NCBI GenBank assembly: GCA_964016885.1
Contig: OZ024761.1
Location: forward strand, 14,880,001 to 14,944,000
Source of the DNA: Eledone cirrhosa
Lineage: Eukaryota
Direction: 5' to 3'
Length of the DNA stretch: 64,000 nucleotides
In this document: positions 9,225-33,445 of the stretch, one piece after another
How positions within the stretch are numbered: position 1 is the first letter of the stretch
Layout: each line of letters begins with the position of its first letter
Translations under genes and position numbers: made by a program
Notes under the pieces: generated by a model
The model's database searches: none
Seen by the model: only the letters and a program-made list of their open reading frames with translations
What the model was told of the DNA's origin: nothing

Positions 9225-10415
<1,191 letters not shown>

Positions 10416-23794: not shown

Positions 23795-24078
23795 AGTGCA
23801 TGCATGCCCTCGTGTGCTGCAAGCAGCGCGTTGAGTCGGTGCTTATCCCGGTTTCATGGCGTGAAGTGACTGAGAATACAAGACTTCCCCTGGATAGGAT
23901 GCCAGTCAATTGCAGGGTTAACCCCCCCCCCCCCATATTGCTGGTACTCATTTTAAGTTAAGTATACTGGAGCAACATGGAATGAAGTGTTTTGCTCAAG
24001 AACACAACACACAACACACCTCAGCAATCGAACCCACTACATTATGATCATAAGTCCACCACCAGGCCACGCTCCTCT
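23795..24078 (-). mobile_element. tRNA-derived SINE, distinct family
   Basis: Minus strand has ggttcgatt, gtgttgtgttcttgagcaaaacacttcatt, aatgagtaccagc and gactggcatcctatccagggg. Confidence 0.6.
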
Positions 24079-24204
24079 ACTCTACATATCATCATCATCA
24101 TCATCATCATCACCGTTTTTACGTTCGTTCTTCCACGCTAGCATGGGTTAGACGGGTTGCCCTGTTGTGGGCAGTGTCCAGTCGGCTGACCTTGTCTTGC
24201 TTTT

Positions 24205-24492
24205 ACGGGAACTAATTCTGGCTTGATTTCTACAGCTGGATGCCCTTCCTAACACCAACCTCATTTACAGTGAGTGTTGGGTGCTTTTTTTGCCGTGGCA
24301 CCTCCACGACCACTTTGCAGTGGAATGATATGGACCCCAGTCCTATCATCTCATTTCTACAGCTGAGTAAACTGGAGCAATGTGAAATAAAGTGTCTTGC
24401 TCAAGGAAACAACACATCACCCGGTCCGAGAATTGAACTCGCAACCTTTCAATTGCAAGCCCAATGCTCTAACCACTAAGCCATGTGCCTTC
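24205..24492 (-). mobile_element. SINE family B (tail truncated)
   Basis: Family match. Confidence 0.75.
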
Positions 24493-24847
24493 ACATATAT
24501 GTAACTAAATATTCAGTTAACTAAGTGAGAGTTATTAAAGTCAACAAGACTTGTTTAAAATGAGATTGATGATGTTGTTTTGTTGATTCGCTGTTCGAAA
24601 TTTCAGGTTCAGTGGCAGACAGTTTTAAGCATAGATCAAGTTCTAAAAATATTAGACGGCTATTCCAGTCGATATAGAAACAGTTTTGGAGTCATGAAAG
24701 TTTATTTTTATCAGCTTTTATCATGAGTTTCAAGTAGCCATGATAAGGCTGGTAAAATAAACTTTCAAAATATCAAAATTGTTTTACACTGCAAACTCTT
24801 GAAATTTTGGACTTGGAACACACACATATATATCTAGTATTACCTAC

Positions 24848-25356
24848 CTATTTAGACAGGGCTATCTAACTAAACTAGGTGTTCACTGGTCTATTTAGAC
24901 AGAGCTAACTATCTAACTAAACTAGGTGTTCACAGGTCTATTTAGACAGGGCTAACTATCTAACTAAACTAGGTGTTCACAGGTCTATTTAGACAGGGCT
25001 AACTATCTAACTAAACTAGGTGTTCATGTGACTATTTAGACGGGGCTAACTAATGAATTTGGGTGTTCACTGGTCTATTTAGACAGGGCTAACTATCTAA
25101 CTAAACTAGGTGTTCACAGGTCTATTTAGACAGGGCTAACTATCTAACTAACCTAGGTGTTCATGTGTCTATTTAGACGGGGCTAACTAATGAATTTGGG
25201 TGTTCACTGGTCTATTTAGACAGGGCTAACTATCTAACTAAACTAGGTGTTCACAGGTCTATTTAGACAGGGCTAACTATCTAACTAACCTAGGTGTTAT
25301 ATGACTATTTAGACAGGCCTAACTAACTAAACTGGTGTTCACTGGTCTATTTAGAG
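24848..25356. repeat. ~42-bp minisatellite
   Basis: ctatttagacagggctaactatctaactaaactaggtgttca units. Confidence 0.9.
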
Positions 25357-26077
25357 AGGGTTCTGTACAACAAGAATAACAACAACACTGTCCCACAACA
25401 CAACCATGGTTGTTGTACAACGAGAACAACAACTGTAGCAGCTCTGTCCCACAGCACGACCATGGATGCTGTACAATAACAACAGCTTCTCTGTCCCACA
25501 ACACAACCATTACAAGAACAAGAAAGCTATCCCACAACACAACCATGAGTGTTGTACAACTACAGCACTGTCCCACAACAAATATTGGAAGTATATCTGA
25601 AAAACATTGTTAACCCAGCAAGGAATTGGGACGGCATCTTGCCAAATTCTTTGAGGCAATAATTCATTTGTCGACTGATTTACTCCTCTCCTGTTGTAAA
25701 CACACACACACGCGCACACACATATACACACATACATATATATATACACACACACATATATATACACACACATACACATATATACATATACACACACATA
25801 CATAAACGCACGTACACACACAAGGACACGGACACATTTATATACTAATAATAATATTAGATACATATAAATACACACACACACACATATATATATATAT
25901 ACACACACACATATACATATTTATATACACACACATACACATATATACATATACACACACATATATATATATATACACACACACATATATATATATACAC
26001 ACACATACATAAACGCACGTACACACACAAGGACACGGACACATATATACTAATAATAATATTAGACACATATAAAT

Positions 26078-26122
<45 letters not shown>

Positions 26123-26151
26123 ATTAACAAATGGAAACTATATTTATAAAA

Positions 26152-26231
26152 CCATATTTATTTCATTATACATATTTCAAGGACACCAAGTTAAATTATG
26201 GTGTGCTTTCATCAGATAAAATATAATATAG
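26152..26231 (-). ncRNA. Type I hammerhead ribozyme motif (mirror copy of 26355-26434)
   Basis: Exact reverse complement inside the 160-bp inverted repeat. Confidence 0.8.
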
Positions 26232-26354
26232 AGCAGTTTTATAAATAAATATTGACATGCCCTTAAAGAATGCGACCATTTCTGTTGGAAGCTCCCGGAT
26301 AGTGTAATGGTCGCATTCTTTAAGGGCATGTCAATATTTATTTATAAAACTGCT

Positions 26355-26434
26355 CTATATTATATTTTATCTGATGAAAGCACACCATAATTTAACTTGG
26401 TGTCCTTGAAATATGTATAATGAAATAAATATGG
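26355..26434 (+). ncRNA. Type I hammerhead ribozyme motif (complete)
   Basis: CTGATGA 26371-26377. Stem II aagcacacca/tggtgtcctt. GAAA 26408-26411. Self-complementary stem III ATATGTAT. AUA site at 26417-26419. Stem I ctatatt-a-tattttat / atgaaata-aatatgg (15 bp, one bulge). Confidence 0.8.
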
Positions 26435-26661
26435 TTTTATAAATATAGTTTCCATTTGTTAATATATCGTATTTTTACTCCAATAATTTGTTGAGTGCTT
26501 TATATCAGTTATAATAATGGTTTCTTATATAGGCACAAGGCCAGCAATTACCCAGTATATTACTGGTACTTTCTTTTATCAACCCCGTGCTTGTTGTATC
26601 CCAACAATTTAAATAGAACTTCTACATATATATATATATATATATATATGTGTGTATATAT

Positions 26662-26880
26662 GTCAACTCTGGATGTCGGTGAGCATGTCCAGCTAACTCA
26701 GTGCTCCTGTGGGAGCCCCTACATGGACACACTGGAAGAGGAAGACCAAGGTTAACGTATGTTGATGCCCTAAGGACAGACACTGGTCTGTTGGAGACGC
26801 AGGACATGGCAGCGATAATGAGGGACAGAGACCGCTGGAGATAACTCGTCCATGGATCTCAGGAATTTTACCCGTCCTAG
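26662..26880 (+). mobile_element. RTE-like LINE 3' fragment
   Basis: VLLWEPLHGHTGRGRPRLTYVDALRTDTGL. Confidence 0.65.
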
Positions 26881-27074
26881 AATATATACACACACAGTCC
26901 TATACAAGTGAGACGACCAATCTTGCCTCAAGTGGGACAATTCCCGTCTATCCCATGCTAGCATAGAAGATAGACATTAAACGATGATGATGATGAGGAT
27001 GATGGTGATGATACACACACACACACACACATACATATGCACACCTACACATTCATACAGACACACACTCATGT

Positions 27075-30000
27075 GTTAATGGTTGTGGTGGTAGTAGTGT
27101 TGGTGTTAGTTGTTGTACTGGTGGTATTGGTGGCTGTAGTAGTTGTGGTAATAGTAGTGTTGGTGTTAGTGGTTGTGCTGGCTGTAGCAGTTGTGGTGGT
27201 AGTAGTGTTGGTGTTAGTAGTTGTACTGGTGGTATTGGTGGCTGTAGTAGTTGTGGTAATAGTAGTGTTGGTGTTAGTTGTTGTACTGGTGGTATTGGTG
27301 GCTGTAGTAGTTGTGGTAATAGTAGTGTTGGTGTTAGTGGTTGTGCTGGTGGTATTGGTGGCTGTAGTAGTTGTGGTAATAGTAGTGTTGGTGTTAGTGG
27401 TTGTGCTGGTGGTATTGGTGGCTGTAGTAGTTGTGGTAATAGTAGTGTTGGTGGTATTGGTGGCTGTAGTAGTTGTGGTAATAGTAGTGTTGGTGTTAGT
27501 GGTTGTGCTGGTGGTATTGGTGGCTGTAGTAGTTGTGGTAATAGTAGTGTTGGTGGTATTGGTGGCTGTAGTAGTTGTGGTAATAGTAGTGTTGGTGTTA
27601 GTGGTTGTGCTGGTGGTATTGGTGGCTGTAGTAGTTGTGGTAATAGTAGTGTTGGTGTTAGTGGTTGTGTTGGTGGTATTGGTGGCTGTAGTAGTTGTGG
27701 TAATAGTAGTGTTGGTGTTAGTTGTTGTACTGGTGGTATTGGTGGCTGTAGTAGTTGTGGTAATAGTAGTGTTGGTGTTAGTGGTTGTGCTGGTGGTATT
27801 GGTGGCTGTAGTAGTTGTGGTAATAGTAGTGTTGGTGTTAGTGGTTGTGCTGGTGGTATTGGTGGCTGTAGTAGTTGTGGTAATAGTAGTGTTGGTGGTA
27901 TTGGTGGCTGTAGTAGTTGTGGTAATAGTAGTGTTGGTGTTAGTGGTTGTGCTGGTGGTATTGGTGGCTGTAGTAGTTGTGGTAATAGTAGTGTTGGTGT
28001 TAGTGGTTGTGTTGGTGGTATTGGTGGCTGTAGTAGTTGTGGTAATAGTAGTGTTGGTGTTAGTTGTTGTACTGGTGGTATTGGTGGCTGTAGTAGTTGT
28101 GGTAATAGTAGTGTTGGTGTTAGTGGTTGTGCTGGTGGTATTGGTGGCTGTAGTAGTTGTGGTAATAGTAGTGTTGGTGTTAGTGGTTGTGCTGGTGGTA
28201 TTGGTGGCTGTAGTAGTTGTGGTAATAGTAGTGTTGGTGTTAGTGGTTGTGCTGGTGGTATTGGTGGCTGTAGTAGTTGTGGTAATAGTAGTGTTGGTGT
28301 TAGTGGTTGTGCTGGTGGTATTGGTGGCTGTAGTAGTTGTGGTAATAGTAGTGTTGGTGTTAGTGGTTGTGCTGGTGGTATTGGTGGCTGTAGTAGTTGT
28401 GGTAATAGTAGTGTTGGTGTTAGTGGTTGTGCTGGTGGTATTGGTGGCTGTAGTAGTTGTGGTAATAGTAGTGTTGGTGGTATTGGTGGCTGTAGTAGTT
28501 GTGGTAATAGTAGTGTTGGTGTTAGTGGTTGTGCTGGTGGTATTGGTGGCTGTAGTAGTTGTGGTAATAGTAGTGTTGGTGGTATTGGTGGCTGTAGTAG
28601 TTGTGGTAATAGTAGTGTTGGTGTTAGTGGTTGTGCTGGTGGTATTGGTGGCTGTAGTAGTTGTGGTGGTATTGGTGGCTGTAGTAGTTGTGGTAATAGT
28701 AGTGTTGGTGTTAGTGGTTGTGCTGGTGGTATTGGTGGCTGTAGTAGTTGTGGTAATAGTAGTGTTGGTGTTAGTGGTTGTGCTGGTGGTATTGGTGGCT
28801 GTAGTAGTTGTGGTAATAGTAGTGTTGGTGTTAGTGGTTGTGCTGGTGGTATTGGTGGCTGTAGTAGTTGTGGTAATAGTAGTGTTGGTGTTAGTGGTTG
28901 TGCTGGTGGTATTGGTGGCTGTAGTAGTTGTGGTAATAGTAGTGTTGGTGGTATTGGTGGCTGTAGTAGTTGTGGTAATAGTAGTGTTGGTGGTATTGGT
29001 GGCTGTAGTAGTTGTGGTAATAGTAGTGTTGGTGTTATTGGTGGCTGTAGTAGTTGTGGTAATAGTAGTGTTGGTGGTATTGGTGGCTGTAGTAGTTGTG
29101 GTAATAGTAGTGTTGGTGGTATTGGTGGCTGTAGTAGTTGTGGTAATAGTAGTGTTGGTGTTAGTGGTTGTGCTGGTGGTATTGGTGGCTGTAGTAGTTG
29201 TGGTAATAGTAGTGTTGGTGGTATTGGTGGCTGTAGTAGTTGTGGTAATAGTAGTGTTGGTGTTAGTGGTTGTGCTGGTGGTATTGGTGGCTGTAGTAGT
29301 TGTGGTAATAGTAGTGTTGGTGTTATTGGTGGCTGTAGTAGTTGTGGTAATAGTAGTGTTGGTGTTAGTGGTTGTGCTGGTGGTATTGGTGGCTGTAGTA
29401 GTTGTGGTAATAGTAGTGTTGGTGTTATTGGTGGCTGTAGTAGTTGTGGTAATAGTAGTGTTGGTGGTATTGGTGGCTGTAGTAGTTGTGGTAATAGTAG
29501 TGTTGGTGGTATTGGTGGCTGTAGTAGTTGTGGTAATAGTAGTGTTGGTGTTATTGGTGGCTGTAGTAGTTGTGGTAATAGTAGTGTTGGTGGTATTGGT
29601 GGCTGTAGTAGTTGTGGTAATAGTAGTGTTGGTGGTATTGGTGGCTGTAGTAGTTGTGGTAATAGTAGTGTTGGTGTTAGTGGTTGTGCTGGTGGTATTG
29701 GTGGCTGTAGTAGTTGTGGTAATAGTAGTGTTGGTGTTATTGGTGGCTGTAGTAGTTGTGGTAATAGTAGTGTTGGTGGTATTGGTGGCTGTAGTAGTTG
29801 TGGTAATAGTAGTGTTGGTGGTATTGGTGGCTGTAGTAGTTGTGGTAATAGTAGTGTTGGTGGTATTGGTGGCTGTAGTAGTTGTGGTAATAGTAGTGTT
29901 GGTGGTATTGGTGGCTGTAGTAGTTGTGGTAATAGTAGTGTTGGTGGTATTGGTGGCTGTAGTAGTTGTGGTAATAGTAGTGTTGGTGTTAGTGGTTGTG

Positions 30001-31580
30001 TTGGTGGTATTGGTGGCTGTAGTAGTTGTGGTAATAGTAGTGTTGGTGTTAGTGGTTGTGTTGGTGTTATTGGTGGCTGTAGTAGTTGTGGTAATAGTAG
30101 TGTTGGTGGTATTGGTGGCTGTAGTAGTTGTGGTAATAGTAGTGTTGGTGGTATTGGTGGCTGTAGTAGTTGTGGTAATAGTAGTGTTGGTGGTATTGGT
30201 GGCTGTAGTAGTTGTGGTAATAGTAGTGTTGGTGTTAGTGGTTGTGTTGGTGGTATTGGTGGCTGTAGTAGTTGTGGTAATAGTAGTGTTGGTGTTAGTG
30301 GTTGTGTTGGTGTTATTGGTGGCTGTAGTAGTTGTGGTAATAGTAGTGTTGGTGGTATTGGTGGCTGTAGTAGTTGTGGTAATAGTAGTGTTGGTGGTAT
30401 TGGTGGCTGTAGTAGTTGTGGTAATAGTAGTGTTGGTGTTATTGGTGGCTGTAGTAGTTGTGGTAATAGTAGTGTTGGTGGTATTGGTGGCTGTAGTAGT
30501 TGTGGTAATAGTAGTGTTGGTGTTATTGGTGGCTGTAGTAGTTGTGGTAATAGTAGTGTTGGTGGTATTGGTGGCTGTAGTAGTTGTGGTAATAGTAGTG
30601 TTGGTGTTAGTGGTTGTGTTGGTGGTATTGGTGGCTGTAGTAGTTGTGGTAATAGTAGTGTTGGTGTTAGTGGTTGTGTTGGTGGTATTGGTGGCTGTAG
30701 TAGTTGTGGTAATAGTAGTGTTGGTGTTAGTGGTTGTGTTGGTGGTATTGGTGGCTGTAGTAGTTGTGGTAATAGTAGTGTTGGTGGTATTGGTGGCTGT
30801 AGTAGTTGTGGTAATAGTAGTGTTGGTGTTAGTGGTTGTGTTGGTGGTATTGGTGGCTGTAGTAGTTGTGGTAATAGTAGTGTTGGTGTTAGTGGTTGTG
30901 TTGGTGGTATTAGTGGCTGTAGTAGTTGTGGTAATAGTAGTGTTGGTGGTATTGGTGGCTGTAGTAGTTGTGGTAATAGTAGTGTTGGTGGTATTGGTGG
31001 CTGTAGTAGTTGTGGTAATAGTAGTGTTGGTGGTATTGGTGGCTGTAGTAGTTGTGGTAATAGTAGTGTTGGTGGTATTGGTGGCTGTAGTAGTTGTGGT
31101 AATAGTAGTGTTGGTGTTAGTGGTTGTGTTGGTGGTATTGGTGGCTGTAGTAGTTGTGGTAATAGTAGTGTTGGTGTTAGTGGTTGTGTTGGTGGTATTG
31201 GTGGCTGTAGTAGTTGTGGTAATAGTAGTGTTGGTGTTAGTGGTTGTGTTGGTGGTATTGGTGGCTGTAGTAGTTGTGGTAATAGTAGTGTTGGTGGTAT
31301 TGGTGGCTGTAGTAGTTGTGGTAATAGTAGTGTTGGTGTTAGTGGTTGTGCTGGTGGTATTGGTGGCTGTAGTAGTTGTGGTAATAGTAGTGTTGGTGTT
31401 AGTGGTTGTGTTGGTGGTATTAGTAGTAGTAGTAATGGTGGTAGTAGTAGAAGTAATGGTGATAGTGGTTGTGATAGTAGAAATAATAGAATAGTGGATG
31501 CAATGGTTATAGTAGTAGTAGTAGTATTGGTAGTAGTGGTGGTGTTAGTTGTAGTATTGGTGGTAGTAATTATGGTGGTG
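27075..31580. repeat. 4.5-kb trinucleotide-derived minisatellite (60-bp and 42-bp units)
   Basis: gtggtattggtggctgtagtagttgtggtaatagtagtgttg with an optional gtgttagtggttgtgctg. Confidence 0.95.
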
Positions 31581-31789: not shown

Positions 31790-32720
31790 TAACCCCAGGG
31801 CAGCTCTGATCCAGCTGGTATTCCAGTTCTGACCATCCTATCTAGGTTCAGACCTGATCCAGCTGGTATTCCAGTTCTGACCATCCTGTCTAGTGTCAGC
31901 TCTGGTCCCGTTGGTATTCCAGTTCTGACCATCCTATCTAGGTTCAGACCTGATCCAGCTGGTATTCCAGTTCTGACCATCCTGTCTAGTGTCAGCTCTG
32001 GTCCCGTTGGTATTCCAGTTCTGACCATCCTATCTAGGTTCAGACCTGATCCAGCTGGTATTCCAGTTCTGACCATCCTGTCTAGTGTCAGCTCTGGTCC
32101 CGTTGGTATTCCAGTTCTGACCATCCTATCTAGGTTCAGACCTGATCCAGCTGGTATTCCAGTTCTGACCATCCTGTCTAGGTTCAGACCTGATCCAGCT
32201 GGTATTCCAGTTCTGACCATCCTGTCTAGGTTCAGACCTGATCCAGCTGGTATTCCAGTTCTGACCATCCTGTCTAGGTTCAGACCTGATCCAGCTGGTA
32301 TTCCAGTTCTGACCATCCTGTCTAGGTTCAGACCTGATCCAGCTGGTATTCCAGTTCTGACCATCCTATCTAGGTTCAGACCTGATCCAGCTGGTATTCC
32401 AGTTCTGACCATCCTGTCTAGTGTCAGCTCTGGTCCCGTTGGTATTCCAGTTCTGACCATCCTATCTAGGTTCAGACCTGATCCAGCTGGTATTCCAGTT
32501 CTGACCATCCTGTCTAGGTTCAGACCTGATCCAGCTGGTATTCCAGTTCTGACCATCCTGTCTAGGTTCAGACCTGATCCAGCTGGTATTCCAGTTCTGA
32601 CCATCCTGTCTAGGTTCAGACCTGATCCAGCTGGTATTCCAGTTCTGACCATCCTATCTAGGTTCAGACCTGATCCAGCTGGTATTCCAGTTCTGACCAT
32701 CCTGCCAGAGATCAGCTCTG
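31790..32720. repeat. 48-bp minisatellite, ~19 copies, two variants
   Basis: ccagctggtattccagttctgaccatcctatctaggttcagacctgat. Confidence 0.95.
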
Positions 32721-32724
32721 TTAT

Positions 32725-33445
32725 TTATTGAGGCACCAAAACTAGGGAGGTTGTTGTGTCCTTCACCTAACTGAAGATTTTTCTCAACCATTTGTTCAGC
32801 GTAGTTTCTATGGCCTGGAAGTCCATCTTATAAACCACTTTACAGAGTGTACAGGGTGTTATTTATGGAGTCACCAAAACTAGGGAGGTCGGCATGCCCT
32901 TAGCACAACTGAAGATTTTTCTCGACCATTTGTTCAGTGTAGTTTCTATGGCCTGGAAGCCCTTCTTATAAACCACTTTACAGAGTGTACAGGGTGTTAT
33001 TTATGGAGTCACCAAAACTAGGGAGGTCGGCATGCCCTTAGCACAACTGAAGATTTTTCTCAACCATTTGTTCAGCGTAGTTTCTATGGCCTGGAAGTCC
33101 ATCTTATAAACCACTTTACAGAGTGTACAGGGTGTTATTTATGGAGTCACCAAAACTAGGGAGGTCGGCATGCCCTTAGCACAACTGAAGATTTTTCTCG
33201 ACCATTTGTTCAGTGTAGTTTCTATGGCCTGGAAGCCCTTCTTATAAACCACTTTACAGAGTGTACAGGGTGTTATTTATGGAGTCACCAAAACTAGGGA
33301 GGTTGGCATGCCCTTAGCACAACTGAAGATTTTTCTCAACCATTTGTTTGGCGTGGTTTCTATGGCCTGGAAGTCCATCTTATAAACCACTTTACAGAGT
33401 GTACAGGGTGTTATTTATGGTGTCACGAAAACTAGGGAGGTTGTG
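32725..33445. repeat. 138-bp tandem repeat, ~5 copies with alternating variants
   Basis: caccaaaactagggagg recurs at 32872, 33010, 33148 and 33286. Confidence 0.9.

Follow-up and report, generated by a model that had tools for sequence, protein, structure and literature searches.

Penelope-like retroelements (PLEs) of the Hydra clade target (TA)n repeats and carry hammerhead motifs (PMC8557442). In Schistosoma mansoni, dual hammerhead motifs have been described 100-700 bp apart on opposite strands; a minimal Schistosoma PLE hammerhead showed no activity when monomeric, and its dimer was only weakly active (PMC4209133). The hammerhead of an anole PLE needed the PLE protein (PMC11167929). In vitro, AT-rich DNA is cleaved by the anole element on both strands, each of which is then extended; uncleaved RNA is used, on which two internal starts delimit the tail (PMC11167929). 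The promoter of Drosophila Penelope lies in the pLTR (PMC2377424). The inverted and tailed insertion of PLEs and the role of their hammerheads are still described as open (PMC8557442, PMC11167929).

The twin-hammerhead layout is thus already published, and the locus described here, situated in a 64-kb stretch of the Eledone cirrhosa genome (hereafter the window), is nothing out of the ordinary for a retroelement class already known, here represented by a new family. What our analysis adds is the statistics of the end points of the copies, which we did not find in the open-access literature; the accessible text of PMC4209133 gives none. A further comparison is offered by the non-LTR retrozymes, which are likewise short, non-coding, PLE-related and equipped with a type I hammerhead (bioRxiv 10.64898/2026.07.22.740005). 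Retrozymes are head-to-tail tandem repeats, whereas the copies found here are mostly solo or head-to-head and have no ends at the cut site. With the locus arranged head to head, and short head-to-tail pairs few (e.g. L048, L093), its classification as a non-LTR retrozyme was rejected.

Layout of the fold-back and its hammerhead motifs

A preliminary description of the window had reported identical inverted arms of 160 bp with type I hammerhead cores, adjoining (TA)n. Pairwise comparison within the window confirmed the coordinates: two arms of 160 nt each (26121-26280 and 26306-26465) are 100% complementary, and the microsatellite is present on both flanks (Table 1). Comparison with longer copies revealed that the central spacer of 25 nt is a continuation of the inverted arm and not a foreign loop. 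The true left arm is 185 nt long and abuts the right arm directly with no loop in between. A short motif, ACTATCC, which marks an edge discussed below, sits inside the inverted arm with its A at 26303, i.e. position -136 (positions are counted from the predicted hammerhead cut). The direct arm continues beyond the palindrome to the right-hand microsatellite and is broken by a SINE-like fragment of about 70 nt; in contigs assembled from public runs, joints skipping 69-75 nt are seen where this insert is missing.

Table 1. Features of the fold-back and its surroundings (positions within the window)
Feature	Position	Strand	Remarks
Host protein-kinase exon	9225..10415	+	Pkinase, E 2.6e-30
(TA)n target microsatellite, left side	26088..26120	.	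From the sequence; most outer ends in the sample adjoin (TA)n or (CA)n, as read by eye
Inverted 5'-truncated PLE arm	26121..26305	-	Spans about -138 to +46 of the element, counted from the hammerhead cut
Left type I hammerhead motif	26152..26231	-	Core 26215-26209, predicted cut after 26167; mirrors the right motif
Head-to-head junction	26305..26306	.	Unique in the genome (1 match, its own locus)
Direct 5'-truncated PLE arm	26306..26626	+	-113 to +140; 87-nt tail beyond +53 (26472)
Right type I hammerhead motif	26355..26434	+	CTGATGA 26371, GAAA 26408, ATA 26417-26419, predicted cut after 26419
SINE-like fragment (~70 nt) in the direct-arm tail	26519..26588	-	Abundant repeat; missing from most family copies
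(TA)n target microsatellite, right side	26626..26661	.	From the sequence

The insertion in the tail has counterparts elsewhere. The ATAATAAT site of the PLE tail holds a tRNA-like SINE or its 3' fragment in the window and in L002, L003, L004 and L020. These inserts differ in length and junctions, and L003 shows a duplicated 17-mer, which suggests repeated independent targeting of the site. The longer tail insert of L002 carries tRNA-like motifs that we take to be similar to A and B boxes. A fragment of about 77 nt of the same kind is also arranged in tandem arrays (L007, L036). Within the window, a tRNA-like sequence at 24426-24483 on the minus strand, which is probably a SINE head, narrowly missed the gathering threshold of Rfam with 27.9 bits (threshold 29).

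A search with our own type I descriptor recovered both arm motifs and no other site in the 64-kb window. An Rfam search of 24000-29000 at E<=5 returned low-score microsatellite and hairpin matches and no hammerhead. The locus motif contains the type I core (CUGANGA, GAAA and UH) surrounded by three stems. Two details of the preliminary description held only in part. The stem I of 15 bp is present with 15-16 bp, but it includes a one-base bulge and G-U pairs, and the proximal 8-9 bp alone are kept across subfamilies; its distal part is not kept across the 37 rows of our alignment. Stem III was described as self-complementary, and ATATGTAT indeed pairs with itself, though only if two G-U pairs are allowed (cofold -2.2 kcal/mol). 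As a monomer, stem III consists of 2 bp and a near-palindromic loop. The motif shares its type I architecture and the short palindromic helix III with the minimal PLE hammerheads, but unlike these, which have a conserved G10.1-C11.1 pair (PMC4209133), it has an A10.1-U11.1 pair, seen in 36 of the 37 alignment rows. It also differs from the published motif in having no extra base after A9 and a proximal stem I of 8-9 bp.

Variation among the copies is unevenly distributed over the motif. The core was intact in 124 of 148 BLAST-collected arms spanning it, and core columns varied by 2.3% as compared with 12.6% in loop II and 3.4-5.5% in the flanks, in a set that includes our first sample, which is biased toward query-like junctions. 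The preliminary description had named covariation among genomic copies as a check, and for two stem II pairs both partners had changed, in 7 rows for one pair and in 15 for the other, out of 37; these counts are inflated by kinship among the sequences. The rows comprise the window and 36 candidates chosen from 51, the other 15 having been discarded by hand as near-duplicates or damaged. Because they were picked by the core motif, invariance of the core in this alignment (A1) is circular and was not used as evidence. From these sequence comparisons, the hammerhead motif looks maintained in the parent lineage.

The parent element and the genome-wide family

The Penelope-like origin put forward in the preliminary description is borne out by five long copies (L038 and L144-L147), in which the repeat is contiguous with pieces of an ORF coding for a reverse transcriptase (RT) and a GIY-YIG domain, with the motifs QLD, YRDD and IVY..YVG. 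All five are damaged by frameshifts, stops or deletions. They contain RWR (MWR in L144), and DKT in all but L147, which has a deletion there. A CxCx5C linker of the CNCRNKSNC type and CxxC are found in all five and a matching CxH in four; a single Cys between IVY and YVG takes the place of a CCHH cysteine pair. Consistent with PLE structure, the sampled copies are inserted into (TA)n, partial tandems of the pLTR type occur in L145 and L147, inverted 5'-truncated arms are frequent, and a tail is present at one end only, with two fixed 3' ends (+53 and +140). In RW[K/R], DKT, the linker, CxxC/CxH, the missing CCHH pair and (TA)n insertion, the parent element appears to match a Hydra-clade PLE.

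The closest described elements are Hydra-clade PLEs such as Hydra-1_Obim from octopus (Craig et al. 2021, PMC8557442), which likewise have a C-terminal GIY-YIG without CCHH, RW[K/R] and DKT, together with the CxCx5C linker and CxxC/CxH. They also insert into (TA)n, carry a hammerhead, leave 5'-truncated copies in inverted orientation and have a tail. However, the printed Hydra-1_Obim protein is homologous but diverged when compared by eye, and its hammerhead differs, marking a different family; the word CTGATGAAAG had no match in the supplement file of PMC8557442. With about 4.2-4.3 kb, the unit is larger than Hydra-clade PLEs, which are generally shorter than 3 kb, and the tail of 87 nt is longer than the published 30-40 nt (PMC8557442). 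The RT label rests on motifs, since Pfam and PDB sequence searches with the ORF and its alignment gave no RT match. At E<=0.001, 225 homologs of the element protein were recovered, with 39-43% identity in the best of them; among the 120 of these that were listed, none bears an informative name. One homolog, P0003, has a weak Pfam GIY-YIG match (E 0.012).

Several features of the long copies deserve mention. The segment 1500-2700 of L038 is a long 3' UTR of the element with the microsatellites (ATTTA)n, (TA)n and (CT)n. Long copies (L038:4960-5010, L144, L146) often start at about +52 to +57 beside an inverted arm and are therefore without the -136 edge upstream of the ORF, which is kept only in partial tandems (e.g. 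L145, L147); transcription would accordingly be restricted to a subset of the copies. A different, second PLE adjoins a copy of this hammerhead family at L031:2046-7417 (contig C1 near 106.16 Mb). It has an RT, a GIY-YIG of the CCHH type (Pfam E 4e-7) and direct as well as inverted terminal repeats; beyond it, a third RT ORF is present in pieces.

The locus belongs to a large family. A DNA search of the 3.0-Gb genome that contains the locus yielded 1,701 candidates, 40 of which were scored, and a 30-mer of the element downstream of the motif had 2,006 exact genomic matches as compared with none for the control. Back-to-back cores 120-200 nt apart, which include several subfamilies, gave 2,388 forward and 2,391 reverse matches (control 0) and hence correspond to about 2,390 loci. 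Spacing between the cores is restricted, with 1,172 matches at 150-180 nt vs 117, some of them unrelated, at 190-220 nt, in keeping with a 5' edge (see below) that applies across the genome. The preliminary description had taken the window copy for a special twin-ribozyme unit. Against this, its junction occurs only once in the genome and junctions vary among these many loci, which indicates that fold-backs are made anew at insertion. An assembly chimera, the other concern raised at the outset, is very improbable, because the layout recurs at so many loci, in agreement with published PLE structure, and because the arms are asymmetric, with different 3' ends and an insert in only one of them. 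None of the public runs tested spans the junction of this locus, as a chimera would have it, but independent short-read contigs have loose ends at 26301-26304.

The locus had further been called very recent and ORF-less. There is indeed no ORF in the window copy. A very recent origin is supported in part: the window arms are identical, as in 4 of 40 arm pairs (median identity 97.9%), but the tail carries a SINE-like insert. The two arms also share their 2 differences from the column majority, which together with their identity fits a young copy made from one template, gene conversion being the alternative explanation of this sequence pattern. Contigs from two public runs of other organisms (X5 and X6, organisms B and C) contain the hammerhead region, so the family is common to relatives; the tail joint without insert is seen in X6. 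Two pairs of near-identical loci on C1 (L104/L105 and L127/L128), 11 kb and 62 kb apart, are local duplications or duplicated haplotypes in the assembly. A signature of A-to-G editing in the copies is weak and was set aside: per site, A>G reaches 1.6 and T>C 1.03, whereas C>T and G>A are both higher at about 3.3.

End points of the copies and a probable route of insertion

For counting end points, the biased first sample was replaced by an anchor sample; it still enters the arm comparison and the set of diverged-subfamily junctions. The anchor sample consists of the first 90 of the 100 listed exact matches (of 2,006) of the 30-mer, all on contig C1. After removal of three duplicates (L047, L105, L128), 87 loci remained, which come from one half of one contig. 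Positions are BLAST ends and thus fuzzy by a few bases. An adjacent inverted arm was present in 56 of the 87 loci, and 20 contained two whole hammerheads. The 3' ends were strikingly fixed: inverted arms ended at +53 in 36 of 56 cases and direct arms at +140 in 57 of 87. Read by eye, the outer ends of the sampled copies mostly abut (TA)n or (CA)n.

The 5' ends were also confined. Out of 143, 39 fell between -137 and -126 and none between -149 and -138, while the hammerhead cut was no preferred end point, since the 6 ends between -5 and +6 equal background. The ACTATCC edge recurs throughout this subfamily, with 716 matches preceded directly by a non-C letter, 521 that stop two bases later and 655 read-throughs; 29 of 30 inspected edge matches were true junctions. 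Diverged subfamilies also show the edge motif at their junctions, and in the partial tandem L147 the ATG follows it after 323 nt. The edge is not a single base. Ends spread over -138 to -128 and cluster a second time at -128, and the arm in the window runs 2 nt past the modal edge. An initiator-like CCCACT speaks for a transcription start here; against it, the TATA-like word at -21 is not conserved, and the DPE-like GGTCG is one base off the consensus position. A second ribozyme at the edge was considered and rejected: folds of -230 to -60 gave nothing recognisable, and Rfam was blank on the window copy, which lacks the upstream part.

Taken together, these end points make it probable that the fold-back arose when a Hydra-clade PLE inserted a short head-to-head copy of itself into (TA)n, the uncut 5' leader being copied twice and the copies joined. 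The RT-endonuclease would nick both (TA)n strands, and cDNAs would be primed at two internal sites, +53 and +140, on uncleaved RNA. Both cDNAs would then extend toward the RNA 5' end and run off the start, the -136 edge being the putative transcription start, and the two cDNA ends would be joined head to head by microhomology or end-joining. Twin hammerheads would arise whenever both cDNAs pass the motif. In support of this scheme, direct-arm starts are enriched at +42 to +57 (11 in 16 nt vs 38 in the 142 nt from -100 to +41, p=0.009), i.e. beside the proposed priming site at +53, as twin priming on one RNA predicts. The scheme resembles that of the anole Poseidon element PAc (Frangieh et al. 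2024, PMC11167929), in which two starts downstream of the hammerhead also delimit the tail, the target is AT-rich and the RNA template is uncleaved, as we infer here. It differs in the start sites, which are 111-118 nt inside the ORF in PAc and both upstream of the ATG in our family, and in the 5' run-off edge and head-to-head joining, which the accessible text on PAc does not describe (PMC11167929).

If the edge is a transcription start, a non-templated base copied from the cap might precede it. Among 100 listed matches, 40 have a G ahead of the edge, as opposed to 8 of 100 at a control position (hand count, Fisher p 1e-7), the control being skewed by (TA)n microhomology. The extra G fits cap copying, but the partner arm or host DNA can explain about half of the 12 cases inspected. 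Neither a 5' edge nor a cap-derived G was found for PLEs in the open-access literature.

The main rival keeps the PLE origin but derives the fold-back from an antisense RNA or a single cDNA that primes its own copying (snap-back), the -136 edge then being a fold-back or RT stop. Such self-priming has been proposed for rotifer PLEs from palindromes at inverted junctions (PMC3846280). In our family, a near-palindrome, GGRAGCTYCC, lies at -129 to -120, some junctions centre there (L021), nine 5' ends fall at -128, and many junctions show microhomology. Self-priming would account for these palindromic junctions. It fits less well with the observation that either arm may reach the edge and that both do so in several loci, with gaps of 0-7 nt (L090, L098, L109), or with solo arms abutting (TA)n that start at the edge too (L180, L186, L187) and for which no fold-back is needed. 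Moreover, each of the two outer ends has its own fixed site at which it meets (TA)n. We therefore regard self-priming as unlikely, albeit not negligible, and continue with twin priming on one RNA.

More tentatively, and with a somewhat less than even chance in our estimation, the about 2,400 fold-backs as a whole might constitute a genome-wide record of PLE insertion, in which two cDNAs are made on an uncut capped leader, run off at its start, sometimes with a cap-copied G, and then become joined at their heads. Such a route would account in vivo for the tail and the inverted structure, for which an explanation has long been missing; hammerhead cleavage would play no part in insertion, and thousands of near-perfect hairpins would remain as a source of dsRNA. 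If transcribed, the hairpins might be targets of dsRNA editing or silencing. Since young copies with fixed end points number in the thousands, the question can be addressed by counting and by mapping of RNA ends.

The host intron and predicted masking of the ribozyme

The position in a kinase gene given in the preliminary description was confirmed. The kinase exon lies upstream on the same strand (Table 1), and the exon after it is found some 2 kb outside the window, which places the element in an intron of about 55 kb. The name HIPK for this kinase is adopted from that description and from sequence motifs.

Folding agrees with the proposed masking of the ribozyme in the host-strand transcript: stem probabilities of 0.90 and 0.98 for the motif alone drop to 0.00 in the whole fold-back, so that masking is thermodynamically expected and the ribozyme in the host pre-mRNA is predicted to be buried in a duplex. 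The stronger claim that a transcript from either strand is masked has an exception. RNA from the likely start of the element in the left arm would be antisense to the host and contain no antisense copy of the motif; it is predicted to be unmasked, with stem probabilities of 0.59 and 0.98.

The predicted masking, the identical arms and the intronic location on the sense strand would suit a selected structure, either a self-propagating twin-ribozyme unit or a host-adapted device that protects the kinase pre-mRNA and supplies dsRNA. We consider this improbable. The junction is unique and those of other loci differ, as expected of fold-backs made anew at insertion, and 67 of the 87 sampled loci do not have two whole hammerheads. 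In addition, there may be little to mask, as the monomeric minimal PLE hammerhead did not cleave (PMC4209133) and the anole one depended on its protein (PMC11167929). The locus is likely an inert by-product of PLE insertion.

Elsewhere in the window, a G/T-skewed minisatellite of 4.5 kb (27085-31568), built from units of 60 and 42 nt, is open in several frames, and two further satellites follow at 31806-32704 (48-nt unit) and 32719-33441 (138-nt unit).
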